Positions 23,082 to 47,718 of a stretch of DNA of 64,000 nt are shown piece by piece (position 1 is the first letter of the stretch; each line of letters opens with the position of its first letter). Made by a program: the position numbers and the translations under genes. Location: contig JACPKP010000009.1 of NCBI GenBank assembly GCA_016186955.1, positions 225,595 to 289,594 on the forward strand. The letters are read 5' to 3'. The notes below the pieces were generated by a model. That model did no database searches. It was not told where the DNA came from and saw only the letters and a program-made list of their open reading frames with translations. The DNA comes from Candidatus Daviesbacteria bacterium. Its GTDB lineage: Bacteria; Patescibacteriota; Microgenomatia; Daviesbacterales; UBA10151.

Positions 23082-25337
23082 GTGACAATTTCTGTTGTTG
23101 GTCTTGGTAAAGTTGGATCTTCAATGCTGGCTGCTTTTGCATCAAGGGGTTTTAAAGGAGTAGGATTGGATGTTAATAATGATTTAGTAAGGAAAATAAA
23201 TGATAAAGAAGCGCCTTTTAATGAACCCAATCTTGCTGAATTTTTAAAAAAGCACAAAAAAGATATTTCTGCAACCTCAAGCTACCAACAAGCCATACAG
23301 CAATCAGAAATTTCTTTTGTAATAGTGCCTACTCCAAGCGATAAAAACGGAGGTTTTTCTTCTCAATTTGTTGAACAAGCTGCACAAGAAATTGGCAAGG
23401 TATTCAATAACAAGTTTAATTACCACCTAGTTGTTATAGTTTCAACACTTTTACCAAAAATAGTTGAGACAAAAATCTTGCCTATTCTTGAAAAAGAATC
23501 AGGTAAAAAATGTGGCCAGGATTTTGGGCTGTGCTATAGCCCCCTCTTTATAGCCTTAGGTAATGTAATTGATAATATTTTAAACCCTGATTTTGTACTG
23601 GTTGGCGAATATGACAAAAAATCCGGTAATTTACTAGAAGATTTTTATAAAAAAGTTGTCGTTAATAAAGCACCAATAGTTAGAATGAATATTATTAACG
23701 CAGAACTGACTAAAATTGCTGTTAACTCCTATATCACAATGAAAATTACTTTTGCTAATATGTTAGGAGAAATTTGCGAAAATCTGCCTGGAGCAGATAT
23801 AGATAATATCACAGAAGCAATAGGGCAAGACTTAAGAATAGGCAAAAAATACCTTAAGGCTGGGTTAGGATTTGGCGGTCCTTGCTTTCCAAGAGATAAC
23901 ATAGCGCTATCATCTTTTTCAAAAACCATTCAAGTAGCACCCATCTTATTTAGTGCAACTGATTCTGTAAATAGAACTCAAACAAACCGTATTGTTAAAA
24001 GAATACTTTCCTCAGGAAATATTGCAAAAGTTGCATTACTTGGACTGGCTTATAAAACCGGTACTTCAGTCACAGAGCAGTCACAGGGTATGGAAATTGC
24101 CCAGAAGTTTTTAAAACTGAACAAAGAAGTTAAGGTTTACGATCCCTTCATTCACGATGCTGATTATTTGAAGGGACTAGTTGTTACAAAATCAGTTGAT
24201 GAATGTATCAAAGGGGTTGATTGTATTATTGTAGCCTTACCTTATCCAGAGTTTAATAAAATTTCTGAAAAATTAGGCAATAATAATCCGATAATTTATG
24301 ATTGCTGGAGGATATTAGACCAGAAACTTTTCAGAGGAGAAGCTACTTATTTCGCCACAGGTCTAGCAGATAGTATTTTACTAAACTTAAATACGCTAAA
24401 AAAACAAAAAATTGTTGTCTGCGGTGCAGGAGGATTTATTGGAGGCCATATGGTGGCTGATTTAGTGAATAAAGGTTATCAAAATATTACTGCTGTTGAT
24501 ATAAAACCCATTGATTGCTGGAATCAGTATTTTGCTAATATTGAAAACCTACAGCTAGATTTAAGAGACAAACGGGCATGCGAGGCTGCATTAAAAAAGG
24601 CTTTTATGATCTATAATTTTGCAGCTGATATGGGAGGCATGGCTTTTATAGAATCAAACAAGGCAAGATGTATGATAAATGTGTTGATAAACACACATCT
24701 TTTGCAAGCAGCAGTAAAAAATAAAGTAAAATATAACACTCAAAAACAACACCTGCCTAACCTTCCTCCGCTAAAGGAAACCGATGCATATCCTGCCTTT
24801 CCAGAGGATGGTTATGGATGGGAAAAATTATTTTCAGAAAGATTATGTAAAAATTTTTTTGATGATTTTGGCTTGGAAACAAGAGTTGCAAGATATCATA
24901 ATATTTATGGTCCTTTTGGGACGCATGATGGCCGTCGAGCTAAAGCACCGGCAGCAATTTGCCGTAAAGTTGCAGAGGCTAAAATAACAGGAAACCATAA
25001 AGTTGAAATTTGGGGAGACGGCAAGCAAACCAGAAGTTTTACATTTATTGATGATTGTATAAAAGGCACCAATAAAATAATGTTTAGTGATATTCAAGAA
25101 CCCGTAAATTTGGGTAGTAGTGAAAAAGTTACAATTAATCAACTAGTTGATATTACAGAAAAAATTGCCGGAATTAAATTAAAAAGAAATTATAATTTAG
25201 GTGCTCCAAAGGGAGTCTATGGGAGAAACAGTGATAATACCTTGATTAAAAAACATTTAGGGTGGGAACCATCTACAAAGCTTGTAGAAGGGATTGAAAA
25301 AACATATAAATGGATTTATGAGCAAATACGCACTTGA
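23082..25337 (+). CDS. Bifunctional fusion of a nucleotide-sugar 6-dehydrogenase (UDP-glucose/GDP-mannose dehydrogenase family) to a GDP-mannose 3,5-epimerase (GME)-like SDR domain
   Basis: N-terminal 430 aa: MTISVVGLGKVGSSMLAAFA (NAD Rossmann), the GFGGPCFPRD catalytic-Cys block, and a C-terminal UDP/GDP-binding domain (GLAYKTGTSV...VKVYDPF). C-terminal 320 aa: VVCGAGGFIGGHMV, then FAADMGGMAFIESNKARCMINVLINTHLLQAA, ARYHNIYGPFGTHDGRRAKAPAAICRK, WGDGKQTRSFTFIDDCIKG and GRNSDNTLIKKHLGWEP. These are near block-for-block matches to plant/bacterial GME motifs. It has a GTG start. Confidence 0.7.
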   Translation: MTISVVGLGKVGSSMLAAFASRGFKGVGLDVNNDLVRKINDKEAPFNEPNLAEFLKKHKKDISATSSYQQAIQQSEISFVIVPTPSDKNGGFSSQFVEQAAQEIGKVFNNKFNYHLVVIVSTLLPKIVETKILPILEKESGKKCGQDFGLCYSPLFIALGNVIDNILNPDFVLVGEYDKKSGNLLEDFYKKVVVNKAPIVRMNIINAELTKIAVNSYITMKITFANMLGEICENLPGADIDNITEAIGQDLRIGKKYLKAGLGFGGPCFPRDNIALSSFSKTIQVAPILFSATDSVNRTQTNRIVKRILSSGNIAKVALLGLAYKTGTSVTEQSQGMEIAQKFLKLNKEVKVYDPFIHDADYLKGLVVTKSVDECIKGVDCIIVALPYPEFNKISEKLGNNNPIIYDCWRILDQKLFRGEATYFATGLADSILLNLNTLKKQKIVVCGAGGFIGGHMVADLVNKGYQNITAVDIKPIDCWNQYFANIENLQLDLRDKRACEAALKKAFMIYNFAADMGGMAFIESNKARCMINVLINTHLLQAAVKNKVKYNTQKQHLPNLPPLKETDAYPAFPEDGYGWEKLFSERLCKNFFDDFGLETRVARYHNIYGPFGTHDGRRAKAPAAICRKVAEAKITGNHKVEIWGDGKQTRSFTFIDDCIKGTNKIMFSDIQEPVNLGSSEKVTINQLVDITEKIAGIKLKRNYNLGAPKGVYGRNSDNTLIKKHLGWEPSTKLVEGIEKTYKWIYEQIRT

Positions 25338-32535: not shown

Positions 32536-33045
32536 TTATTTGAAGAATTCAAGCGTATCACGCATCCACTGCGGAAGATATTTGTAATGAGGGCTTGTCA
32601 CAAGCTTACCGTCAATTACTGATGGAGCATCAATGTAATTAGCGCCCGCATTTTCTATGTCATCCCGAATACTGTAATATCCGGAGACTTTTTTCCCCTT
32701 GACAATTTTAGCCGATATTAACATTTGTGACCCGTGACAAATAGCGGCAATAACCTTTCCTGCTTTTGCAAATTTTGATATAAAATCAATCACAGTTTTT
32801 TCCTGGCGCAGATATTCCATACATTTTGCTCCTCCAGGAATGATTAGTAAATCATAGTCAGAAACCCTCAGATTGGTTGTATCTTTAGTAGGGACAACTT
32901 TAGTTCCGTTTACGCCGAGAACTATCTCTTTATTTTTAATAGCAACATCAACCTTGAACCCTGCTTCCTGAAGTCTGTAATAGGGGTATATATATTCATG
33001 GTCTTGCACATATTTGCCTGTTATAATTAAAGCCCTTTTTTTCAT
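32536..33045 (-). CDS. DJ-1/PfpI family protein (class I glutamine amidotransferase-like fold)
   Basis: A 169-aa protein with the nucleophile-elbow Cys in AAICHGSQML and the overall PfpI length and pattern. Confidence 0.6.
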   Translation of the reverse strand: MKKRALIITGKYVQDHEYIYPYYRLQEAGFKVDVAIKNKEIVLGVNGTKVVPTKDTTNLRVSDYDLLIIPGGAKCMEYLRQEKTVIDFISKFAKAGKVIAAICHGSQMLISAKIVKGKKVSGYYSIRDDIENAGANYIDAPSVIDGKLVTSPHYKYLPQWMRDTLEFFK

Positions 33046-33806
33046 ACAGCCTTTTTAATAAGCAAAGATTCATTTTCAGCAGAAGGGTTTAAGCTATGGT
33101 GTTTTTTCAAATCCCCAAATGAAATTATATCACCAGTGTCCAGGAGGCATGTTTGAGATCCATCGGTTATATTTCCTGTCAGAAGCACCAAAATATCGGG
33201 TTTTGATTGTTTAGTATGATTTATCAAGTGGTTGCTATCGGAAAACTTGACCAAGCTTAAAATACAGTCACCGAACTGTTTCTCTACCCCGTAACGTTTT
33301 TTACTATTATTAAATGATTGATATAATTTATTGTCAAGCTTTGAATAAAATTTTTCATCCTCATATCCTCTTCCTCGTCTTCCATATTTGTCGCTAAACC
33401 TGATTAAGTCCCTTTTGTTGGTCGGTGTTTCTGTTTCTATCACCAACAACCCATTGTTTGAGGTAACTGTTGTAGAATGAAATACTCCTTTGTTAATAAG
33501 CAATCCATGGCAAAGATTAAGTTTGTGGTTTCCACTGAGCGTTTCAACCCTAGCTTCGCCGGATAAAATAATAATAGAGGTTTTTTTATTAGGATGTGCG
33601 TGCATTGAAGTTTGGAAGTTGGGTTTTAAATAAAGCAGCCATACGGCGGTTTGGTTGTTGGAATAAATCAGATATTCATATCCCCATGGCTTTCTTATTA
33701 CCACATTTGAGTAGTCAAAAAAATTATCCAGGAGGTAATCAGGGTTTATTTTAATACTTGACATCTGTCTGATATCTTCGTCGGTTTGATCAATTTTTTT
33801 TACCAT
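33042..33806 (-). CDS. Metal-binding cupin domain protein (possible sugar isomerase/epimerase)
   Basis: Cupin motif 1 with HxH...E (TSMHAHPNKKTSIIILSGEARVE) and a second beta-rich C-terminal half (possible bicupin). Confidence 0.45.
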   Translation of the reverse strand: MVKKIDQTDEDIRQMSSIKINPDYLLDNFFDYSNVVIRKPWGYEYLIYSNNQTAVWLLYLKPNFQTSMHAHPNKKTSIIILSGEARVETLSGNHKLNLCHGLLINKGVFHSTTVTSNNGLLVIETETPTNKRDLIRFSDKYGRRGRGYEDEKFYSKLDNKLYQSFNNSKKRYGVEKQFGDCILSLVKFSDSNHLINHTKQSKPDILVLLTGNITDGSQTCLLDTGDIISFGDLKKHHSLNPSAENESLLIKKAV

Positions 33807-34746
33807 TGGAATTTATAATATATTCTACTGTCTTTACTATTTTACCTGTTGTAGGGGGGAGGTTGTCCAGATGGGGGGCAAATCCGGCAGACCGTTCTTC
33901 CAGTCCGAGCGTTTTGATTGGTTTAAATTTGTTGCCTGATCCGGTGAGTTTTTGGATTATGTCAAAAGCTAGACATTTCAAAGCTCCATTTTCAAAATCA
34001 CCGTCCAGTATCAGTCCTCCAAACCTGCTTTGATTGAGTGAAGCAATAATTTTTTTATTAATTACAAATGGCTTGAGCCATAGCAGATGTATAAGGTTAC
34101 AAACAATGCCATTTCCCTCTAAGGTTTTAACAGCTTCAATGGCGTTGATTCTAGTTGAAGAAATCGCAAATATAGTAACATCAGCTTTAGGTTTAATAAT
34201 ATCTTTCATGTCATAATCTATAGGGAAACTTTTTTTATGCTCACTGATGTACATCGGGTCATCGTGTTCCATAAAATAATTCCAAACCTGTTGGTATTCG
34301 TTGGGTGTCATGGGGGCACAAACAACAATTCCGGGCATCCTAATAAATATACTGTGGTGGCTACCGGATGCCACAGGCCCGATAGCTCCGTCCATGGCTA
34401 TTGAGCGCACAAAAATAGGGCAGGGAATTCCCCACATATCCTTTGATTTTGCTGCGTAATTGACAATGCTTGCAGCGTTGTACCACTGAAAACCCTGGTA
34501 TCTAACTATATAAATTGGCCTTCTGCCCGCTAAGGCCGCCCCTACAGCTATACCTCCGCCGGATACATCAGCCATTGATAATTCAACAAGGCCTTCTTTT
34601 TCACTTAAGTGAGGGATTGTACCACCGACCCAGCCAACAGCTGTTAGACATTGGCCTAATGCCAAACCGTTATTTTTTAACAGGTGATTTCTGGTTATTT
34701 GGCTTATTTTTTCTGCAACAGTCATTTTTTGAGTTGTTTCTTCCAT
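33790..34746 (-). CDS. Thiamine-diphosphate-dependent 2-oxoacid dehydrogenase E1 beta-subunit-like protein
   Basis: LSMADVSGGGIAVGAALAGRRPIYIV...NYAAKSKDMWGIPCPIFVRSIAMDGAIGPVASGSHHS...PGIVVCAPMTPNEYQQV aligns block-for-block with the PDH/BCKDH E1-beta Pyr domain. Confidence 0.65.
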   Translation of the reverse strand: MEETTQKMTVAEKISQITRNHLLKNNGLALGQCLTAVGWVGGTIPHLSEKEGLVELSMADVSGGGIAVGAALAGRRPIYIVRYQGFQWYNAASIVNYAAKSKDMWGIPCPIFVRSIAMDGAIGPVASGSHHSIFIRMPGIVVCAPMTPNEYQQVWNYFMEHDDPMYISEHKKSFPIDYDMKDIIKPKADVTIFAISSTRINAIEAVKTLEGNGIVCNLIHLLWLKPFVINKKIIASLNQSRFGGLILDGDFENGALKCLAFDIIQKLTGSGNKFKPIKTLGLEERSAGFAPHLDNLPPTTGKIVKTVEYIINSNGKKN

Positions 34747-35606
34747 AATTTATCAATAAATTCTTTCGTTTCCTGTTCGATCTTTAAAGCCTGTTTTTCT
34801 AACCCCAAATTTTTAAGATCTTCTTTGACTATTTTAAATCTGTCCCATTCTGGTTCGCTATCTTGTCCGGTGCCATTGTGCCAAAGCACCCTTGTTGTAT
34901 GGATATTTATAAAGCTAGGTAAATTTTTAGCAAGCTTTTTGACATGATGCATAATAAGCCAGGGATCATCGGTGATTTCTACCGCATCCATTCCAAATGC
35001 TTTTGCAACATTAACCATACTCCAGTTTCTTCTAACTGCGACTTTGGTTAAAATTGAAAGTCCATTATCAGTGCAAACAAACAAAACAGGAAGTTTTTTT
35101 GAAGCAGCATAGCCCATTGAACTTATCACATAGTCTTCTTCTGCCGAAGCATCCCCCATAATTGCCAAGACTTTTTGTTTTGACCCCAATGCATATCCTA
35201 CTGCGATTGGAATTTGGTCTCCCATAAGCCCGCTATGGCCAAACATGCCAATCTTCGGGGAATGAATTGATGCAGACCCACCCATGCCTTTGGCGATGCC
35301 GGAAGGCTTGTGCAGTAGTTCGTCAATTAAAGGGACAATTTCTCCCCCGAAAGCTAAATAAATATCATGGCATCTGTGTTGGGCAAAAATATGCGGTTTT
35401 TTATAAGCTATTGATATTGCTGATGAAACAGATTCTTCACCAACTGATAAATAAATCGGCATTTTAATATAACCTTTATCAAAGGCATCTTTGGTATTGA
35501 ATTCGAAATTGCGCGAGATGCACATTTTTTTAAACATCTCCAAAGACTCTTTCTTAGTAAAATGTTTTGAGATATTTTTGATTTCACCGAAGCTTTTTGA
35601 ACGCAT
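34722..35606 (-). CDS. Thiamine-diphosphate-dependent 2-oxoacid dehydrogenase E1 alpha-subunit-like protein (TPP-binding)
   Basis: KGMGGSASIHSPKIGMFGHSGLMGDQIPIAVGYALGSK...LAIMGDASAEEDYVISSMGYAASKKLPVLFVCTDNGLSI aligns with E1-alpha (KGKGGSMHMY...GGNGIVGAQVPLGAGIALA...YGDGAANQG...LPCIFICENNRYGMGT). It is overlapped and coupled with the beta subunit. Confidence 0.65.
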   Translation of the reverse strand: MRSKSFGEIKNISKHFTKKESLEMFKKMCISRNFEFNTKDAFDKGYIKMPIYLSVGEESVSSAISIAYKKPHIFAQHRCHDIYLAFGGEIVPLIDELLHKPSGIAKGMGGSASIHSPKIGMFGHSGLMGDQIPIAVGYALGSKQKVLAIMGDASAEEDYVISSMGYAASKKLPVLFVCTDNGLSILTKVAVRRNWSMVNVAKAFGMDAVEITDDPWLIMHHVKKLAKNLPSFINIHTTRVLWHNGTGQDSEPEWDRFKIVKEDLKNLGLEKQALKIEQETKEFIDKLWKKQLKK

Positions 35607-35657: not shown

Positions 35658-37001
35658 TTATGTTATTCCCAGATTCTCGAAACTATTATAAAGTTTTAAG
35701 TCTTGTTCACTATCGACTTCATACCAATTACCATTAATTGGTGTAGCAAAAATTTGTAACCCTGTCTTAATAAGCCTTTGCAACAGGGAAGTCATGTCCA
35801 GCTTATCATTGGTGTTTGGATCCAGTGATGCAAGATATTTTTTTATTTTTTTCCAACCGGAAGGGGTGATTTTTAGAAGCCCCATATATTGGCCCTCAAT
35901 ATTTTCAAATTTGTCGGTTTTGTTACCAATTTCCAGCAACACGCCATTTTTTATTTTAAATGTTTCTGCGTCATCTAAAGGATTATTAAATCTTTTTTTC
36001 CATAGATTAAACCAGTTTTTATCATAGGATATTGATACATTACCTTTTGATTTAAGAAGACTTTTCACTGCTTGTTCTGAATAAACAATATCCGAGTAAC
36101 TTATAATACAAGTATAACGGCTGAGCCATTTATCTGCGCACATTAACGAGCTTACCATATTGGTTTTCTTCCAGCGTGGATTGTTAAAAGTTTTTAGATT
36201 AAAGGGTTGTAGTTTTTTTGCTTGATAGCCTGATACTAATGCTATATCTTGGATACCGCCTTTTCTGAGTGCATTAAGCTGCCACTCAATTAGGGGTTTT
36301 CCTTTAAGCATTACTAAACATTTAGGCTTTTTAGCTGTCAATCTTTTCATCCTACTTCCCCGCCCGGCTGCAAGAATGATTGCTTTAGGCGCCTCATGTT
36401 TTTGGGACTCTAAAAAGAATGATTTGAATAAATTGACATTGTCTTTTCTAAATGGCTCCATTCTTTCGGGGTGCCACATAATTGCTTTTATTTTATATTT
36501 TGTATGCTCAATAGCTTTGATGACATTATCTTCTGACCTGGCCCAAACAGTCAGATCATCTGTTGTGTTTAAACTGCCCAAGCAGTGGTAGCTGTTGACA
36601 GTACTTTGTTTCCGGTTGATTGCTATCCTCTGTTTATTTGCAATGTGGCCCTGTACTATTATAAGTTTGACACCAAAATAATCCTGGATTATCTGCATGC
36701 CCCGGCAGACGCCAAAAAGAGGAATATTGTTTTTTATAGAATAAGAAATAAGATATCTTTCAACATCATCTCTTTCTGGTGCAGTTCCACCATATTTGGA
36801 CAGATCATTTCCTCCAGTAAGTAAAAAACCGCTTATTTTCAAGTTTTTAAGATAATTTTTTATTAAATCTATATTATTTGGTAAAAGAGCAGGAATTAGA
36901 TTACATTGAATAAAAAATTTATTCCAATTTTGGGACAGCGTATCCAGTCTTTCTCCGTGTTGGTTGATTACTACATTTTGGGTGACGCCTATAAATTCCA
37001 T
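35658..37001 (-). CDS. Fusion of a class-I glutamine amidotransferase-like hydrolase (Cj1417-like gamma-glutamyl-CDP-amidate hydrolase) to a LicC/MobA-like nucleotidyltransferase (Cj1416-like CTP:phosphoglutamine cytidylyltransferase)
   Basis: N-terminal 200 aa: a peptidase-C26/GATase-1 fold with nucleophile LFGVCRGMQ and an H-E dyad (MWHPER). C-terminal 245 aa: AIILAAGRGSRMKRLTAKKPKCLV (GxGxR sugar-phosphate nucleotidyltransferase motif). Confidence 0.65.
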   Translation of the reverse strand: MEFIGVTQNVVINQHGERLDTLSQNWNKFFIQCNLIPALLPNNIDLIKNYLKNLKISGFLLTGGNDLSKYGGTAPERDDVERYLISYSIKNNIPLFGVCRGMQIIQDYFGVKLIIVQGHIANKQRIAINRKQSTVNSYHCLGSLNTTDDLTVWARSEDNVIKAIEHTKYKIKAIMWHPERMEPFRKDNVNLFKSFFLESQKHEAPKAIILAAGRGSRMKRLTAKKPKCLVMLKGKPLIEWQLNALRKGGIQDIALVSGYQAKKLQPFNLKTFNNPRWKKTNMVSSLMCADKWLSRYTCIISYSDIVYSEQAVKSLLKSKGNVSISYDKNWFNLWKKRFNNPLDDAETFKIKNGVLLEIGNKTDKFENIEGQYMGLLKITPSGWKKIKKYLASLDPNTNDKLDMTSLLQRLIKTGLQIFATPINGNWYEVDSEQDLKLYNSFENLGIT

Positions 37002-37005
37002 TGGA

Positions 37006-39336
37006 TTATGATACTATTTTTACTTGCTTGTTAATACAATCTATTTCTAAAAACCGGGAGGATGAAAGATTAGAAAATAAAGTTTCTCCTGTCCCGATAA
37101 CAGCCGGTATACCCAACTCTCCCGCCCGGATCGCCATATGAGAATTAATACCTCCATACATAGTGATAAATCCGGCGATTTCGTGAGAGAAAATCCAATC
37201 ATACCCAGGATCGGCGCTTGGAATAAGTAAAATACTTTTTTTAATTTTTTTTAAATCCTGATTGGAGAAAGCAACATGCCCCTTGGCTGTTTGGTTAGTA
37301 ATAAAATTGGGATGAGATGGAGCGATATGGAAGGACCAAATATCTTCTGCGCTTTTTATTAACGGGGGAAGAATTATGTTGCTCGTTATTGAAAAATTTC
37401 TTTTTCCTTCTTCTATCGATTGCAACATCACATTTTTTTTATCAAAGCTTGATGTGTATAACTTCTTGATACAGTTAATGTCTAAAAATGCTAAATCTGT
37501 ATCACTGATGGAATATGAGGCGCCCAGGTTTTGAAGCAGGGACAAAAGATCGCTTAGCGAATAGGTAAAAATAAATTTAGCATACTCCCTGCCGTAGATT
37601 GCTTCTTTTATAAAATCAAATATCCCCAGGATATTGTGATCAATCCCATGCTTGTTTAAATATCGGTCTATTTGTTTTAGTTGTTCCAATGATAGACTGA
37701 ATTTACTTTTTTGCTCGGGGGGCCTTTTAAATTTTTTAAAATCAAAATATTTGTTTGGTTCTTCATCATAACGCTTGGATAAAATATCATAAGTTCCAGG
37801 ACGCAGGTGCCCATATTTTTTTAAAAAGTTTTTTTTGGACAACTTATTTAAATCCTTATTCATTTGGGAACTGATCGAATCTATTGAAAGCATAAAATTA
37901 TCATAATCTGCTTGGGATAGAATTTTCTCGGTAACTAATGATTTTAAAAGCTGGACAGCTATAAAGCCTGCCCTGGCAAGTCCTGCAAAAGGTAAGGTCC
38001 CATACCTCTTGCAATCCTCTAGCAGCCAATAAATTTTTGAAACAATGTCTAATTCGCTACCCAATATAGTTTTACGTCTTCTTTCAAGTTGATTAATTTT
38101 TTCAAGGTCTGTCCGCCAAAGCCCGGTTTTATTGTTAATAATCTGATTAGTTAGTGTCCTGAGACTTTCAATTAAGGATTTACATTCTTCGTTTGAGAAT
38201 CCGTCTTTTTTTAATAAATTTATTTTTGTATCTAAATCAAAAGTGTAACAAGAATAGACTATTTCAAATTCAATTTTATCATGAAGATTGGGTTGTTTAA
38301 TCAGTTTTTTTAAATAATAGTTAACTAATTTCTCAGCCAAATTTTGGTTCACTGTGGATGGTATAAAAGAGTTGAAATCAACTCTGACATCAATGTAGGG
38401 AAGTCCATGAAAATCTACTAATAGAGGAAAACTCCTTAAATTCTTATATCCATAATTATGTCTTTGGTAAGCCCAAATACCGTCCGTTATCAGTTCTTTG
38501 TATAGAGATAGCGCTAAAGGTTTGGGTCTGATACCAATAATTTCTGCAGGATTCCAGTCTGGCATGATACCGAACACCGTTTTTGATCCGCAAAGATAAG
38601 GATGTTTTCGGCTTAGGTCCCCAATTTTGTTATCTACTTCCACTAATACACTTGAAAGTTGGTCTATGTCCACATCCATTTTTATGAAACTGTTAAGAGG
38701 ACGGGCTTGCAAAAGATAGAGATGGTTTTGATAATCCAAAGCGAATTCAATATCCAAACTGTCAGATTTTGTTATTGACTCTAACTCAAAAATTAAATTA
38801 ATAATTTTTACTAACCTTATGGGAGCTTTTTTGGAGGAGTATTTATAAAAATAGTATGTTTTTAACTTATTTGATTTTCCTGAAGTTACAGAATCTGTCG
38901 ATCCTGTTTGGTCATCGTAGTTTATTACAATGTATGGACTTCCTGTATTTGGATCTTTACTAAAAGCTACACCTGACATCATGATATTTTTAAAATTAAG
39001 ATATGGTTGTATAAAAACTTGATTTTTTGGATTTTGATCAAAAGAGGAGATAACTTTTTCTATCGCTTCGTTTATCTTCGGTATACCTACAATATTTTGT
39101 ATAGAGGTATAGCGGCCTGCCAGAGACTGGTTAACACTGTCTTCATTGACTGCGCTACTTCGGATAATTAATTTTTTTTTACCCCACCCCTTTTTTTTGA
39201 TTTTTTCTAAAATATGGTTTTTTTTATCTATCCAGTCACCAACGGAAAAACTAATTTGTGGTAAGACCCGAGCCTTTTTCAGCAGCAGAGAAAGTTTTTG
39301 AAGCGTTTCCGCCTTTGTCACAAAAAAGTCATTCAT
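37006..39336 (-). CDS. PEP-synthase/PPDK/rifampin-phosphotransferase-like ATP-dependent kinase, Cj1418-like (candidate L-glutamine kinase)
   Basis: 776 aa. The C-terminal PEP-utilising mobile domain has a catalytic His (ITMYGGINSHMAIRAGELGIPAVIGTGE) about 40 residues from the C-terminus, as in Cj1418 (His737). There is a large N-terminal ATP-grasp/PPDK_N-like region. Confidence 0.65.
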   Translation of the reverse strand: MNDFFVTKAETLQKLSLLLKKARVLPQISFSVGDWIDKKNHILEKIKKKGWGKKKLIIRSSAVNEDSVNQSLAGRYTSIQNIVGIPKINEAIEKVISSFDQNPKNQVFIQPYLNFKNIMMSGVAFSKDPNTGSPYIVINYDDQTGSTDSVTSGKSNKLKTYYFYKYSSKKAPIRLVKIINLIFELESITKSDSLDIEFALDYQNHLYLLQARPLNSFIKMDVDIDQLSSVLVEVDNKIGDLSRKHPYLCGSKTVFGIMPDWNPAEIIGIRPKPLALSLYKELITDGIWAYQRHNYGYKNLRSFPLLVDFHGLPYIDVRVDFNSFIPSTVNQNLAEKLVNYYLKKLIKQPNLHDKIEFEIVYSCYTFDLDTKINLLKKDGFSNEECKSLIESLRTLTNQIINNKTGLWRTDLEKINQLERRRKTILGSELDIVSKIYWLLEDCKRYGTLPFAGLARAGFIAVQLLKSLVTEKILSQADYDNFMLSIDSISSQMNKDLNKLSKKNFLKKYGHLRPGTYDILSKRYDEEPNKYFDFKKFKRPPEQKSKFSLSLEQLKQIDRYLNKHGIDHNILGIFDFIKEAIYGREYAKFIFTYSLSDLLSLLQNLGASYSISDTDLAFLDINCIKKLYTSSFDKKNVMLQSIEEGKRNFSITSNIILPPLIKSAEDIWSFHIAPSHPNFITNQTAKGHVAFSNQDLKKIKKSILLIPSADPGYDWIFSHEIAGFITMYGGINSHMAIRAGELGIPAVIGTGETLFSNLSSSRFLEIDCINKQVKIVS

Positions 39337-39344
39337 AATTTATC

Positions 39345-39391
39345 TCGATAAAACCCCGACCGTTAAGTCGTAGGTAGATTCATTTTATCGA
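39345..39391 (-). promoter_or_regulatory. Nested inverted repeat (possible intra-operon RNA stem-loop / processing or attenuation site)
   Basis: A perfect 9-bp IR tcgataaaa ... ttttatcga (39345-39353 / 39383-39391) encloses an inner GC hairpin cgac-cgttaa-gtcg (39357-39370). It spans the MTase stop codon and the 43-bp gap before the Gln-kinase-like gene. Confidence 0.2.
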
Positions 39392-40138
39392 TTGGACTGT
39401 CCAGGCACGTGTTTTGTAAGCTGTTCGAATAAGGTTTTTACTGGATATAATTTTGGAAATTTCTTTTAAAATTTTTTGAAAAATTAATTTTCCTGCCTGG
39501 ACTTGGATGTCGTTTACAGATCTCCAGACCCCTAAGTATCTCTCTTTGGACATCAATTCAAAATGAGGAGCCTCCATAAAAACTAAATTTTTAAATTTTT
39601 TTCCGGAAGTTAAAACCTCCCCCCAGTTTTTTGTATTAGTTTGGGACCCTGAAGAAACTCTTTTAAGATTTGGAATAAAATTTTTAATAATTAATTCCAC
39701 AGCTTTTTCTACCTCGCTTTTTTCAATATCTCTCGGGTTCCACAAAATTGTAAGAAAACCGCCTGGTTTAAGTATACGGTAAAACTCCTTTAAGGCTTTT
39801 TTAGAATCTGCCCAATGGAAAGAAGAGGCCATCATAACCCAATCTACAGATGAATTTTTGAGACCTGTATCTTCTGCAATTCCTTTAGACCACATAAAGT
39901 TTTTTACAGACTTTTCACCTATTATCCTCATGTTGTTGCTTGGTTCAACTGCAAACCCCCCAATCCCAAAACAATCTAACATTGAGGTTAATTTACCTGT
40001 TCCAGCCCCAATGTCCGCAACAACAAAGCCCTCTTTTAGGGCGCCTATATAAGAGATAAGTGTTTTAATAATTATGGGAGAATAGCCTGGCCTGTTTGAA
40101 TAGTACTTTGCAAGAATAGAAAAATCTCCGTGTTTCAT
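39380..40138 (-). CDS. Class I SAM-dependent methyltransferase (candidate phosphoramidate O-methyltransferase)
   Basis: Motif I VVADIGAGTGKLT. It sits between the CysC-like and Gln-kinase-like genes and is coupled to both. Confidence 0.65.
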   Translation of the reverse strand: MKHGDFSILAKYYSNRPGYSPIIIKTLISYIGALKEGFVVADIGAGTGKLTSMLDCFGIGGFAVEPSNNMRIIGEKSVKNFMWSKGIAEDTGLKNSSVDWVMMASSFHWADSKKALKEFYRILKPGGFLTILWNPRDIEKSEVEKAVELIIKNFIPNLKRVSSGSQTNTKNWGEVLTSGKKFKNLVFMEAPHFELMSKERYLGVWRSVNDIQVQAGKLIFQKILKEISKIISSKNLIRTAYKTRAWTVQSIK

Positions 40139-40644
40139 TTTAATTTTAAAACTTGACGTACAATTTCATCAGGTAATTTTTTACCGTCATTTTTAATGAC
40201 CATATCGGGATTTAAAGGTATTTCTGGTTTTATGTCAACCCCTACTACATCTTTAATTTTTCCTGCATGATATTTTTTATATATTTTCTTGAGGTCTCTG
40301 CCAAATAAAACTTTCTTAGGAGCTGTAAGATAAATTTCCTTATAATTTTTAATAAACCTTCTATTCCAATTATGGCAATCATGGAAAAGGGAAATCGTTG
40401 CGCAGACAACATCTAACCCTTGATCTGAAAGCATTTTGCAAATCCTTGAATAAGTTTTAGCTAGTATCCTGCGGTCATTTATAGTGTGACTATGGAGATT
40501 ACCGAAAACCTTTCTCAGCTTATCTCCATCTAAATAAACTACGTTTTTACCGGAAGCCTGCAGTTTTTTATACAGTGCAAATCCAACTGTAGTTTTTCCG
40601 GTTCCGGAGATTCCGGTAATCCACCAAACAACCCCTTTTTTCAT
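40135..40644 (-). CDS. Adenylylsulfate (APS) kinase-like P-loop kinase, Cj1415-like (candidate cytidine diphosphoramidate 3'-kinase)
   Basis: VVWWITGISGTGKTTVGFAL...VYLDGDKLRKVF...RRIL is collinear with CysC (VIWLTGLSGSGKSTLA...LDGDNIR...RR). Confidence 0.7.
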   Translation of the reverse strand: MKKGVVWWITGISGTGKTTVGFALYKKLQASGKNVVYLDGDKLRKVFGNLHSHTINDRRILAKTYSRICKMLSDQGLDVVCATISLFHDCHNWNRRFIKNYKEIYLTAPKKVLFGRDLKKIYKKYHAGKIKDVVGVDIKPEIPLNPDMVIKNDGKKLPDEIVRQVLKLK

Positions 40645-41987
40645 CAGTTTATAGGTAATAGCTTTACCATAACTTGTTTTTTATTATAAAGATCAAACCA
40701 TGCTTTATAAGCCCAAAAACGGATAGCAAAATAATCCCTAATAATTAGTATTAAAAAGACAATAACCAGTATTGGTGTAAAGATTATAATAAATATAGCC
40801 AAAAGTATTTTTATCGCTACGGGATACTTTTGATAAACAGATATAACTTGTGTTGCCAAACTACTGTCAATGCTTCTTATGATAAACATTACCTTCTTTT
40901 GCGAGAGTTTAATTTGTTTTTGTGTGAAAAAAACAAGACGTTCTTTTAAAAGAGAAAACTCTGTTTTAAAAGGTAAAGCTAATGTTAAAAAAACAAATAG
41001 CTTGAGTAATTTATTTCTATACATATTACTTATTTTATACTCCCAATGCTTATACTTAGGATATGCTAGGCACAGCAGCCGAAATTGGTCAAAGCTGTTT
41101 AAATAACTTATTTTTCTATCAATAGTCTGGATTCCGATGCCGGAAATTCTTGGTGACTCAGGTCTATTCCACCATTTCTTACCGTCAAAAGTACTCTCCA
41201 AAAGATGGTTGTCCCAGGGAAGGTTTAACCATTTGCAGATTGCTCTCAAGGTCTCTTTATTTTTTTGGTGTAAATCTTCTAAACGGACCGCTTTTGAGAA
41301 TTTAGTGTAACTACTAAAAAAGGGTCTGAAACCATAGACATAGCGCTCCTCCTTTTTTCCCCAAAGTTGCATGTAATCACAAAGCATTTGAGAAACAGTG
41401 CATTCTAGAGTATTTACCGGAAGATTATTGAACAGGATGTGTTTAATCCCGGAGTTGATAGATGGGATGGGCGCCCTAACCATGTGCAGGAATTTTGCTT
41501 TGGGAAAATCAGATAAAAGATATTGAGCATGTTTTTTGGGTAGGCTGTGAATAGGAAAGAAGATTACTTTTGGTTGATGAATTTTTCTACCTAAAGCATA
41601 GGCATAAGAGAGGTAGGTAGCAATAAAAAAATTTTTTCTGGATGGATAAATTTTGCCCAAAAGATTTTTTAATAAACCACTAAAATGTTTTTCTTTAATA
41701 CAGACAGATTGATTCATTCTGGGTCCAAGCTGGTTTAGACCATGGCTTTCGGGAGCGCCTTTTTTAGTAAACCAATATTTATGATAGTCGGTAAAAGCAT
41801 TAATTAATTCCTCTGATCTAGAATACCTTTTACCATAACTTTCCCAAAAAGCAAAAAAAGATCTGCTATATAGGGCTGGAGTCATTAAAACTTTTGGGTG
41901 ATTGTCAAACAAGCTATGTAAAAAAAGGGTGCCACTGGAGCCATAGTTTTGGACAGCTACAACTGAGATATTTTTTGGAATTCTCAT
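40644..41987 (-). CDS. Sulfotransferase-fold protein with a C-terminal membrane anchor (candidate phosphoramidate transferase, or a genuine sulfotransferase)
   Basis: The N-terminal 5'-PSB-like P-loop VQNYGSSGTLFLHSLFDNHPKV resembles PRSGTTLLHxLLxxHPxV of Sulfotransfer_3 enzymes. The C-terminus has 2 TM segments (LKLFVFLTLALPF..., AIKILLAIFIIIFTPILVIVFLILII). Confidence 0.5.
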   Translation of the reverse strand: MRIPKNISVVAVQNYGSSGTLFLHSLFDNHPKVLMTPALYSRSFFAFWESYGKRYSRSEELINAFTDYHKYWFTKKGAPESHGLNQLGPRMNQSVCIKEKHFSGLLKNLLGKIYPSRKNFFIATYLSYAYALGRKIHQPKVIFFPIHSLPKKHAQYLLSDFPKAKFLHMVRAPIPSINSGIKHILFNNLPVNTLECTVSQMLCDYMQLWGKKEERYVYGFRPFFSSYTKFSKAVRLEDLHQKNKETLRAICKWLNLPWDNHLLESTFDGKKWWNRPESPRISGIGIQTIDRKISYLNSFDQFRLLCLAYPKYKHWEYKISNMYRNKLLKLFVFLTLALPFKTEFSLLKERLVFFTQKQIKLSQKKVMFIIRSIDSSLATQVISVYQKYPVAIKILLAIFIIIFTPILVIVFLILIIRDYFAIRFWAYKAWFDLYNKKQVMVKLLPIN

Positions 41988-42898
41988 AAAATATTTTTGT
42001 TGTACCAGGTAATAGTTTTTTTGATGCCATCTTCAATCTTTGTTTTTGGAACCCAGTTAAATACTTTTTTACAGTAGGAAGTGTCCATTACTTTATAAGG
42101 TGACCCATCAGGTTTTGAAGTATCGAAAACTAACTTTCCTCTAAAACCAGCAGCAACTTGAATCATCAAGGCAAGTTTTTTTATGGAAATTCCAATTCCT
42201 GAAGAGATATTAATAGGGAAAGGATCTGTACGGGTTTTGATTGATTTGATAAATGCTTCAACAAGGTCATCTACATAGACCCAATCCCTCACCGGTTTAC
42301 CGCTTCCCCAGACGGTAACTTCTTTTAAAGAGTTTTCTTTTGCATCCATAATTTTTCTGATAAGCGCACCCAGGGCATAAGATTTTTCGGGGTCAAAATA
42401 ATCATCGGGCCCGTAAACATTTCCTACAATCAAGTTTGAGTACTGTATTCCAAACTGTCTGTTAAATGCCATGGAATTAATATATGTATGCCTGCTGGTT
42501 GAGCCTATGACTAGGACCGATTCATGCATTGGGCCATTTCCCCAGAACTGTTCTTTCAAGAGACCATTATTTACCGGTGGGTAAGCTGAATTTGATAATA
42601 TATTAATTAATTTTTCAACCCCTGATAGTCTGGCGGATTCCTGAAGATTTAAACTAACTAAAGTGTTATTTATAAATATTTCCCCCGGATGTTTGTTGAC
42701 ATAGGAAATACCTCCGGTATCTATTGCGCAATTTATTATTATTTGAGGTTTTTGTTTTTTAAAGAATATTTTAGCTTGGTTAAGGTTTTTAAAATTAATT
42801 TTACCTGAGGTTATAACATTATAACCTCTGGTTTTTAATATTTTTACAGTTCTTTTGCCAATAAATCCGCCTGCTCCGGCAACGAAGATTCTTTTCAT
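41984..42898 (-). CDS. fcl: GDP-L-fucose synthase-like (Fcl/WcaG family) NDP-4-keto-6-deoxy-sugar epimerase/reductase
   Basis: MKRIFVAGAGGFIGKRTVKIL...LNQAKIFFKKQKPQIIINCA parallels the E. coli Fcl N-terminus (KQRIFIAGHRGMVG...LLDSRAVHDFF...IDQVYLAA). It has a short Rossmann start and is about 300 aa. Confidence 0.6.
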   Translation of the reverse strand: MKRIFVAGAGGFIGKRTVKILKTRGYNVITSGKINFKNLNQAKIFFKKQKPQIIINCAIDTGGISYVNKHPGEIFINNTLVSLNLQESARLSGVEKLINILSNSAYPPVNNGLLKEQFWGNGPMHESVLVIGSTSRHTYINSMAFNRQFGIQYSNLIVGNVYGPDDYFDPEKSYALGALIRKIMDAKENSLKEVTVWGSGKPVRDWVYVDDLVEAFIKSIKTRTDPFPINISSGIGISIKKLALMIQVAAGFRGKLVFDTSKPDGSPYKVMDTSYCKKVFNWVPKTKIEDGIKKTITWYNKNIL

Positions 42899-46932: not shown

Positions 46933-47718
46933 CTAAATTCCTAAAAATTGAACCAAGTTGTTATGCAAAATTGGGTTAGAAGCCAGTATTGACTCATCAC
47001 TGATTGTCCATTGTTCATTTCTTAAGTTTGTCACAATTCCCCCTGCTTCCCTGATAATTACCACCGCTGCAGCCATATCCCAAGGTTCCAGGCTGGTTGC
47101 CATATATGCATGCATCTTACCCTCTGCTGTAAGAGCAAGTGGAACAGAGGCACAACCTGAAGAGAAGTTGCAGGTGATGCCATCAGGGCTCAGCAACCTT
47201 TCTAGATATTTTATATCCCCGGTTCTATTTAATTTTCCAAAATCGATTCCCATGAGTGTCCTGTTGAGGTCTATGTTTTGTGCTACCTGTATTGGTTCAT
47301 TGTTTTTGCTTGCGCCACCTTTAGCAAAAGCCACATAAAGATCATTTCTTTTAGGTGCATAGATTACACCCAAAACTGGATTTAATCCTTCCGCAAGGGA
47401 TAAACAGACGCTGAAATGGTCGTTGATGCCGGAGGTATATAGAAGGGTACCATCCAGCGGATCTACTACCCAATTAAGCTTTGATCCCATATCCCGGTCA
47501 ATGTTTTCTTCAGAGAGGATATTATGCGAAGGAAACCGTTTGATTATCGCCTCCCTGATTAAGTTGTCACTTAAATCATCAACCTCAGTTTTAAAATTGG
47601 TACGAAGTTTCCATTCCAGTCTGTGCATTTTTTCGAAATTATCCATTAACAACTCTCCTGCCTTAAGGCTTAAGTCAACAGCAAAATCTTTATATAAAAT
47701 TAACTCAGATTCAGTCAT
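46933..47718 (-). CDS. Inositol monophosphatase / CysQ-family phosphatase (candidate 3'-phosphonucleotide phosphatase)
   Basis: The family motifs are SEEN (metal-binding EE), WVVDPLDGT and WDMAAAVVIIREAGG. Confidence 0.65.
   Translation of the reverse strand: MTESELILYKDFAVDLSLKAGELLMDNFEKMHRLEWKLRTNFKTEVDDLSDNLIREAIIKRFPSHNILSEENIDRDMGSKLNWVVDPLDGTLLYTSGINDHFSVCLSLAEGLNPVLGVIYAPKRNDLYVAFAKGGASKNNEPIQVAQNIDLNRTLMGIDFGKLNRTGDIKYLERLLSPDGITCNFSSGCASVPLALTAEGKMHAYMATSLEPWDMAAAVVIIREAGGIVTNLRNEQWTISDESILASNPILHNNLVQFLGI

Follow-up and report, generated by a model that had tools for sequence, protein, structure and literature searches.

A single-chain fusion of two predicted phosphoramidate-donor enzymes in a surface-glycan island of Candidatus Daviesbacteria

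In Campylobacter jejuni, the hydrolase Cj1417 and the cytidylyltransferase Cj1416 are two polypeptides that act on consecutive intermediates leading to cytidine diphosphoramidate. An open reading frame (ORF) in a 64,000-nucleotide stretch of Candidatus Daviesbacteria DNA (GenBank assembly GCA_016186955.1, contig JACPKP010000009.1, positions 225,595 to 289,594 of the forward strand; this whole stretch is referred to as the window) appears to combine both enzymes in one chain. The locus raises the questions of whether the fusion is real, which reactions it would catalyze, and whether joining the two domains serves to hand an intermediate from one active site to the other. The ORF is, quite probably, a genuine bifunctional enzyme that arose by fusion of neighbouring, translationally coupled genes of phosphoramidate-donor synthesis; its substrates and products are assigned by homology to C. 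jejuni and by genomic context. The ORF and its parts, in window coordinates, are as follows.

35658..37001, minus strand: fused ORF, GATase-like hydrolase plus cytidylyltransferase, 447 amino acids plus stop, ATG start; the same architecture is found in the relative P0002/L001
36414..37001, minus strand: N-terminal domain, residues 1-196, class-I GATase/peptidase C26 fold, Cj1417-like (candidate hydrolase of cytidine-diphosphate (CDP)-L-glutamine), based on Pfam, NF045546, catalytic triad, and fold
36705-36707 (Cys99), 36471-36473 (His177), and 36465-36467 (Glu179), minus strand: catalytic codons, within GVC99RGMQ and WH177PE179R
36387..36413, minus strand: bridge, residues 197-205 (LESQKHEAP), standing where an unfused pair has its stop/start junction (from comparison with L087 and L088, both unfused, and with the fused L001)
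35661..36386, minus strand: C-terminal domain, residues 206-447, LicC/IPCT/PntC-like nucleotidyltransferase, Cj1416-like (candidate cytidine triphosphate (CTP):phosphoglutamine cytidylyltransferase), based on the loop AIILAAGRGSR with Lys227, Pfam, and fold

Translation of positions 35658-37001 on the minus strand yielded 447 codons followed by a stop, with no internal stop codon. This bears out the earlier reading of the locus, made from the letters alone (the sequence-only reading), which had described one ORF free of stops and frameshifts. The coordinates given there were exact, while the strand had been left unstated; the domain limits proposed (1-200 and 205-447) were essentially right and are now placed at 1-196, 197-205 (bridge), and 206-447. 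In the DNA of the junction region, no in-frame ATG, GTG, or TTG was found between M181 and M218. Since the Gly-rich loop occupies residues 208-217, the cytidylyltransferase domain can be made only within the fused polypeptide.

The closest fused homolog (protein P0002, locus L001) comes from a different SRA sample and is 71% identical to the window ORF at the protein level and 78% identical at the DNA level (625 mismatches). It keeps the fused frame, the bridge length, and the downstream synteny. The ratio of nonsynonymous to synonymous substitution rates (dN/dS) between the two genes was 0.11 in the GATase domain and 0.09 in the NTP-transferase domain, values that are approximate, dS being saturated. 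Both domains are under purifying selection. The bridge has the same nine-residue length in L001, at 22% identity and a dN/dS of 0.58.

The identity of the two halves was studied by family, motif, and structure comparisons. Pfam matched residues 4-181 to Peptidase_C26 (PF07722; E=1.4e-20, 74.5 bits against a cut-off of 20.5) and GATase (PF00117; E=6.5e-12, 45.9 bits against 22.8). From residue 206, it matched the protein to NTP_transf_3 (PF12804; E=1.1e-16, 61.9 bits against 27) and NTP_transferase (PF00483; E=6.3e-9). All of these lie above the gathering thresholds, and the families are those that the sequence-only reading had anticipated. The Cys99-His177-Glu179 triad, whose possible absence had been raised as an objection to the hydrolase assignment, is intact, and its three residues are invariant across 11 aligned fusion proteins, as are L210, A212, G213, G215, R217, and K227 of the C-terminal domain. 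An AlphaFold model built from 11 sequences had a mean pLDDT (predicted local distance difference test) of 90.4 and a pTM (predicted template-modelling score) of 0.64; the inter-domain geometry is not confident. When this model was compared with known structures by Foldseek, the N-terminal domain (pLDDT about 90) matched PuuD (6VTV, TM-target 0.71), SpuA (7D4R), and Lin1909 (3FIJ), and the C-terminal domain matched IPCT (4JD0), PntC (6PD2), LicC (1JYK), and MurU. LicC 1JYK was also the best PDB match of the C-terminal domain by sequence; no structure of Cj1416 or Cj1417 was found in the PDB by sequence search.

Among NCBIfam models, the best and only strong match of the N-terminal domain was NF045546, the Cj1417 equivalog (gamma-glutamyl-CDP-amidate hydrolase), at 129.8 bits (E=1.3e-37), with an end-to-end alignment of residues 3-189 to model positions 2-190 of 198. 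Other GATase-type models gave at most 47 bits (anthranilate synthase), and the PuuD model gave 31 bits. Five standalone orthologs of about 200 amino acids scored 117-139 bits on NF045546, and two of them are named by JGI with the Cj1417 reaction; for most standalone orthologs tested, NF045546 was the sole family at E<=1e-12. Standalone proteins 43-49% identical to the N-terminal domain carry the JGI name "N5-(cytidine 5'-diphosphoramidyl)-L-glutamine hydrolase". As for the C-terminal domain, its closest standalone relatives (about 250 amino acids, 52-66% identity) have the NCBI name "phosphocholine cytidylyltransferase family", and those at 52-55% identity carry the JGI name "L-glutamine-phosphate cytidylyltransferase". 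No dedicated NCBIfam model for Cj1416 was found. Judged by its sequence, the N-terminal domain is predicted to work like Cj1417, and we do not file it under the NF045546 equivalog, the cut-off of which lies above its score.

Further evidence on function comes from the genes transcribed in the same direction upstream of the fusion.

37006..39336, minus strand: candidate Cj1418-type L-glutamine kinase, 776 amino acids; PPDK_N and PEP-utilizers mobile domain (Pfam), PRK05849 at 986 bits against a cut-off of 501
39380..40138, minus strand: S-adenosylmethionine-dependent methyltransferase, 252 amino acids, O-methyl candidate; Methyltransf_11/25 (Pfam), recurring in related cassettes
40135..40644, minus strand: adenosine-phosphosulfate kinase (APS-kinase)-like kinase, 169 amino acids, candidate Cj1415-type cytidine diphosphoramidate 3'-kinase; PRK05541 at 173.9 bits against a cut-off of 127, APS_kinase (Pfam)
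40644..41987, minus strand: sulfotransferase-fold protein, 447 amino acids, candidate transferase using a 3'-phospho-CDP-amidate that resembles 3'-phosphoadenosine 5'-phosphosulfate (PAPS); Sulfotransfer_3, E=5e-14 (Pfam)

We take PRK05849 to stand for Cj1418 and PRK05541 for Cj1415. The stop codon of the kinase gene lies 4 nt upstream of the ATG of the fusion, and in L001 and L003-L006, too, this kinase gene immediately precedes the fusion or gene pair. In C. jejuni, the corresponding gene set turns glutamine, ATP, and CTP into 3'-phospho-cytidine diphosphoramidate (PMC11800397; 10.1101/2024.11.05.622173). By analogy, the upstream Cj1418-type kinase would make L-glutamine phosphate, which the C-terminal domain of the fusion would join with CTP to yield CDP-L-glutamine, with release of pyrophosphate. 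Next, the N-terminal Cys-His-Glu domain would cut the gamma-glutamyl amide bond of CDP-L-glutamine, releasing L-glutamate and cytidine diphosphoramidate. The latter would be 3'-phosphorylated by the adjacent APS-kinase-like enzyme, giving a PAPS-like donor for surface-glycan decoration. The assignment of the halves as Cj1417-like and Cj1416-like, proposed by the sequence-only reading, is supported at the sequence level by NF045546, by the JGI names of homologs, and by the presence of a complete Cj1418/Cj1415-type cassette, and the order of reactions that it gave, transferase first and hydrolase second, is supported as well.

How widely the cassette occurs was assessed in the best 80 loci from species-representative genomes (L007-L086; the named loci). 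A kinase-like gene was found alongside in 74 of them, nearly always directly upstream; in 60, an APS-kinase-like gene lay no more than 8 kb away. Wherever the context was examined, the kinase gene was followed immediately on its 3' side by the fusion or gene pair. Carriers of the cassette include many cultured Pseudomonas species, Aeromonas sanarellii, Breoghania, Rhizobium, and Sedimenticola, as well as Acidobacteriota, Verrucomicrobiota, Actinomycetota, Selenomonadaceae, Chloroflexota, and Bdellovibrionales.

The frequency of the fused state was studied next to that of separate genes. An exhaustive search of 1.84 billion cluster representatives returned 903 proteins at E<=1e-30; eight of the top 150 cluster-representative matches were fused, and five of these eight also contained a glutamine kinase domain. 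The retrieved proteins include 18 true hydrolase-transferase fusions, which in a neighbour-joining tree of 264 transferase domains (rough, without bootstrap support) fall in about 10 separate all-fused clades. The occurrence of the fusion elsewhere, which the sequence-only reading had suggested looking for, is thus documented by some 18 proteins in public databases. The architecture is polyphyletic, since the window protein and P0002 share 65% identity with an unfused protein but no more than 49% with any other fusion. At the named loci, an ORF check revealed a separate adjacent gene pair in 77 of 80 cases, the transferase only in two, and a false fusion in one (L052, where the ORF spans a masked N-run and lacks WHPE). 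A preliminary picture of the fusion in about 78 named species was rejected on the same grounds, tblastn having merged adjacent genes. A search with the N-terminal domain only, which was not exhaustive, returned no fusion in its top-120 list, even P0002 being missing, and was not used for frequencies.

The arrangement of the separate genes suggests how a fusion may arise. In most named pairs, 0-9 nt separate the stop of the hydrolase gene from the start of the transferase gene, or the two overlap as ATGA. The nearest unfused relative of the window protein (L087, proteins P0270 and P0005; 76% identity in the hydrolase, 66% in the cytidylyltransferase) has an ATGA overlap, with the junction FKSFFHKQSG*/MKYKAIIL against FKSFF-LESQKHEAP-KAIIL in the window. 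Since neighbouring genes are so tightly packed or overlapping, a small indel or a stop loss is enough for a fusion. In the fused protein, the domains stand in the order of the genes (Cj1417 before Cj1416) rather than of the reactions, which is what a simple read-through or indel fusion would be expected to give. In the Daviesbacteria lineage, the fusion would have arisen recently, through a small indel or loss of a stop at an overlapping ATGA-type junction, and would then have been retained. An excess of same-frame over other-frame pairs (54:23) at the named loci was considered as a sign of read-through and rejected, because in-frame pairs give one long high-scoring segment pair and rank higher; the mixed stop codons (TGA 28, TAA 19, TAG 7) spoke against it too.

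Several other fusions of pathway genes were observed. In triple fusions, the hydrolase, cytidylyltransferase, and Cj1418-like kinase form single ORFs of 1,157-1,288 amino acids (P0149, P0161, P0186, P0221, L089); the kinase part is full length and 38% identical to the kinase encoded in the window. One of them, of 1,273 amino acids (L089:6001-9822), lies on a contig of a giant-virus metagenome-assembled genome (MAG; IMGVR GVMAG-M-3300024261-33) with 23% GC; the search of the surrounding 6 kb gave no homolog of the APS-kinase, methyltransferase, or sulfotransferase. Elsewhere, APS-kinase-like and glutamine-kinase regions share one stop-free ORF of about 975 amino acids, and the cytidylyltransferase is fused to an APS-kinase (434 amino acids), a methyltransferase (548 amino acids), or a Glyphos_transf domain (620 amino acids). 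Loci and proteins with such other fusions are L007-L011, L050, and L061 (from Bryobacterales, Stellaceae, and Acidobacteriota MAGs), and P0133, P0122, and P0170.

The sequence-only reading had proposed that the fusion allows channeling of CDP-L-glutamine, supposed to be labile, and in its strongest form this makes the fusion an adaptive device in which the hydrolase site receives CDP-L-glutamine directly from the cytidylyltransferase. We regard this as unlikely. Some benefit of co-localisation is suggested by the origin or retention of the fusion in about 10 clades, by triple fusions that add the glutamine kinase, and by the maintenance of the fused state over substantial divergence. However, the bridge differs across fusions both in sequence and in length, the latter spanning roughly 5-25 residues as read from the alignment. 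It is under relaxed constraint and is predicted to be disordered (pLDDT <50 at residues 200-202), and with a pTM of 0.64 the model gives no domain interface with confidence. Separate proteins suffice in about 99% of family clusters and in 77 of the 80 named genomes, and the junction geometry makes a neutral one-mutation fusion easy. Channeling thus receives no positive support from a bridge that is short, unconserved, and disordered, or from the unconfident geometry. Recurrent retention and the triple fusions leave some room, if rather little, for a benefit of proximity or stoichiometry; if there is a benefit, it would most likely lie in keeping the two activities close together at a constant 1:1 ratio, not in a structured channel. 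A bolder version, which we consider more doubtful still, is that two-domain and triple fusions pass unstable phosphorus-nitrogen (P-N) intermediates from site to site unreleased, marking a phosphoramidate glycan-decoration pathway widespread beyond Campylobacter, and here completed by a sulfotransferase-fold phosphoramidyl transferase using a PAPS-like donor.

The second alternative is one of chemistry. The LicC/PntC-like domain could act on another phospho-compound and the PuuD-like domain on another gamma-glutamyl amide, so that the product would not be cytidine diphosphoramidate. Several observations weigh against the assignment preferred here and in favour of such a reading. The NF045546 score of 129.8 bits falls below the NCBI equivalog cut-off of 250. 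The assignment of the C-terminal domain rests on JGI homolog names and context, its fold being common to enzymes for phosphocholine, inositol phosphate, phosphonates, and sugar phosphates. The best PDB matches are LicC, IPCT, PntC, and MurU for one half and PuuD, SpuA, and Lin1909 for the other, and the NCBI and JGI pipelines apply names such as "phosphocholine cytidylyltransferase family", "choline kinase", and "PuuD". Loci with a variant Gly-rich loop (Solirubrobacterales and some Alphaproteobacteria), mostly without an APS-kinase match, hint at functional diversity in the wider family. The window protein, however, has the canonical AAGRGSRM loop; its flanking Cj1418-type and Cj1415-type genes pass curated cut-offs; PuuD-type models reach about 31 bits against 130 for NF045546; and the four-gene association repeats across phyla. 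Since the standalone orthologs also score 117-139 bits, the NF045546 cut-off shuts out the whole environmental (non-Campylobacter) group and not just the window protein. A different chemistry is therefore distinctly improbable, and the two predicted steps of phosphoramidate-donor synthesis remain the preferred function of the window protein.

The variant-loop transferases form a subgroup with AAGEGNRL or AAGQGTR in place of AAGRGSRM. They are encoded at L036, L039, L041, L042, L044, L045, and L048 (Solirubrobacterales/Actinomycetota) and, in Alphaproteobacteria, at L051, L053, L054, L059, L060, and L069. Several of these loci lack a kinase match in addition to the APS-kinase-like match, and the subgroup may be a functionally different branch.

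The weakest alternative, that a sequencing or assembly error (a missed stop or an indel near codon 200) joined two genes, draws on the 0-9 nt spacing or overlap of separate genes in most genomes, so that one wrong base could look like a fusion, on an exact 6,119-bp duplication in L002 showing that assembly errors do occur at the locus, and on the masked N-run behind the apparent fusion L052, but it is hardly credible given the identical fused frame and equal bridge length in L001, a different organism and sample, 16 further fused proteins from unrelated contigs and sources, the lack of a start codon for a second gene in the bridge region, and a dN/dS of about 0.1 in both halves. The sequence-only reading had itself named such an error as a danger, and the fused frame of the independent relative L001 disfavours it.

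L002 (GCA_964526115.1, contig CAZGIJ010000002.1) was not accepted as independent confirmation, being 99.99% identical to the window and from the same population. Its exact tandem duplication corresponds to window positions 35877-41995, the sulfotransferase/APS-kinase/methyltransferase/kinase/fusion cassette, and truncates one copy of the fusion, giving the 378-amino-acid entry P0001. The repeat is absent from the window. It is probably an assembly artefact, a very recent duplication being the alternative.

The genes around the fusion were also surveyed. Directly downstream, positions 32536-35606 (minus strand) encode a thiamine-pyrophosphate-dependent E1 alpha/beta-like pair (294 and 318 amino acids), a 254-amino-acid protein without a clear family, a DJ-1/PfpI protein, and a HAD hydrolase; their order is kept in the 78%-identical relative L001. 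Sulfotransfer_1/3 genes recur in cassettes L004, L006, and L007-L010, and Glyphos_transf genes in L003, L004, and P0170. Both kinds are candidate phosphoramidyl transferases; neither the sulfotransferase-fold nor the Glyphos_transf candidates had an NCBIfam match. In the window's cassette, predicted to be of the MeOPN type, the sulfotransferase-fold ORF at 40644-41987 is the local candidate for the transferase role of Cj1421/Cj1422. Five kb from the cassette, positions 46933-47718 (minus strand) encode a protein of the inositol-monophosphatase family, which includes CysQ 3',5'-bisphosphate nucleotidases. As a speculation, this protein could clear the 3',5'-CDP by-product of phosphoramidate transfer. 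At 23082-25337 (plus strand), a complete three-domain UDP-glucose/GDP-mannose dehydrogenase continues into an NAD-dependent epimerase/dehydratase domain within one 751-amino-acid ORF, a further case in this island of successive sugar-nucleotide steps joined in one chain. The whole 64-kb window, together with at least 5 kb past its right edge (L105-L107), is a surface-glycan biosynthesis island of 33% GC. Besides several PMT_2/GT-C transferases and many methyltransferases, it encodes GT2 and GT4 enzymes and a Wzx flippase, and 20 further ORFs that were checked, like the DNA past the right edge, proved to be glycan-biosynthesis genes only. Neither tRNA nor housekeeping genes were seen.

The fusion itself is a small evolutionary step. 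The sequence-only reading had held that it strongly supports a functional linkage of the two enzymes; the linkage is real, as follows from the C. jejuni biochemistry and the near-universal adjacency of the genes, and the fusion adds little to it. More useful are two by-products of the analysis, a Rosetta-stone family of fusions and the wide distribution of the cassette. The fusions confirm independently the linkage of pathway genes, joining hydrolase and transferase with or without the kinase, kinase and APS-kinase, and transferase and APS-kinase, methyltransferase, or glycerophosphotransferase. The cassette is present in many phyla, including cultured Pseudomonas, while reviews still call the chemistry Campylobacter-specific; a 2022 review describes the glutamine kinase as specific to C. 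jejuni (PMC9561416). If the assignment is right, the window protein naturally carries out two consecutive phosphoramidate-donor steps on a single chain and would offer a clean test of whether proximity helps P-N intermediates. It could also be a convenient reagent for structural work, since the PDB sequence search returned no structures of the C. jejuni enzymes.

As to novelty, the sequence-only reading knew of no description of this architecture, and we found none in the full-text literature searched, which did not cover the primary Raushel papers. The sole fusion mentioned in the literature found is that of a phosphoenolpyruvate mutase with a cytidylyltransferase in Borgs. The architecture does, however, sit in public databases in about 10 lineages, along with the triple fusions, under generic names such as "choline kinase/PuuD".

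The closest known system is the pair Cj1417 and Cj1416 of C. jejuni NCTC 11168 (with Cj1418 and Cj1415), which has the same folds and the same predicted consecutive reactions, and whose gene order of kinase, hydrolase, and cytidylyltransferase is matched by the window's domain order. The C. jejuni enzymes are two polypeptides, whereas the window encodes one, which is divergent (129.8 against 250 bits on NF045546), belongs to an uncultured host with 33% GC, and is found in a different glycan island with a sulfotransferase-fold partner. The L087 pair has the same order and the same upstream kinase (a fragment), but its genes are in different frames, with a 4-nt overlap (ATGA), in contrast to the in-frame nine-residue bridge of the window. 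The triple fusions share the N-terminal two-domain arrangement, the triad, and the Gly-rich loop, and add a C-terminal Cj1418-like kinase of about 800 residues; their order of hydrolase, transferase, and kinase differs from the usual gene order of kinase, hydrolase, and transferase. The nearest design analogue is PntC-AEPT (6PD2), a LicC-like cytidylyltransferase fused to an enzyme of its own head-group pathway. It differs in having a C-terminal pyridoxal-phosphate transaminase as partner, 2-aminoethylphosphonate as substrate, and no P-N chemistry. PuuD, SpuA, and Lin1909, together with LicC (1JYK), have the same folds and catalytic motifs as the two halves, but are about 20% identical to them, act on other substrates, and are standalone proteins in unrelated contexts. 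Viewed against these systems, the fusion is a genuine variant of an enzyme pair already known; rare but recurring, it does not amount to a new system.

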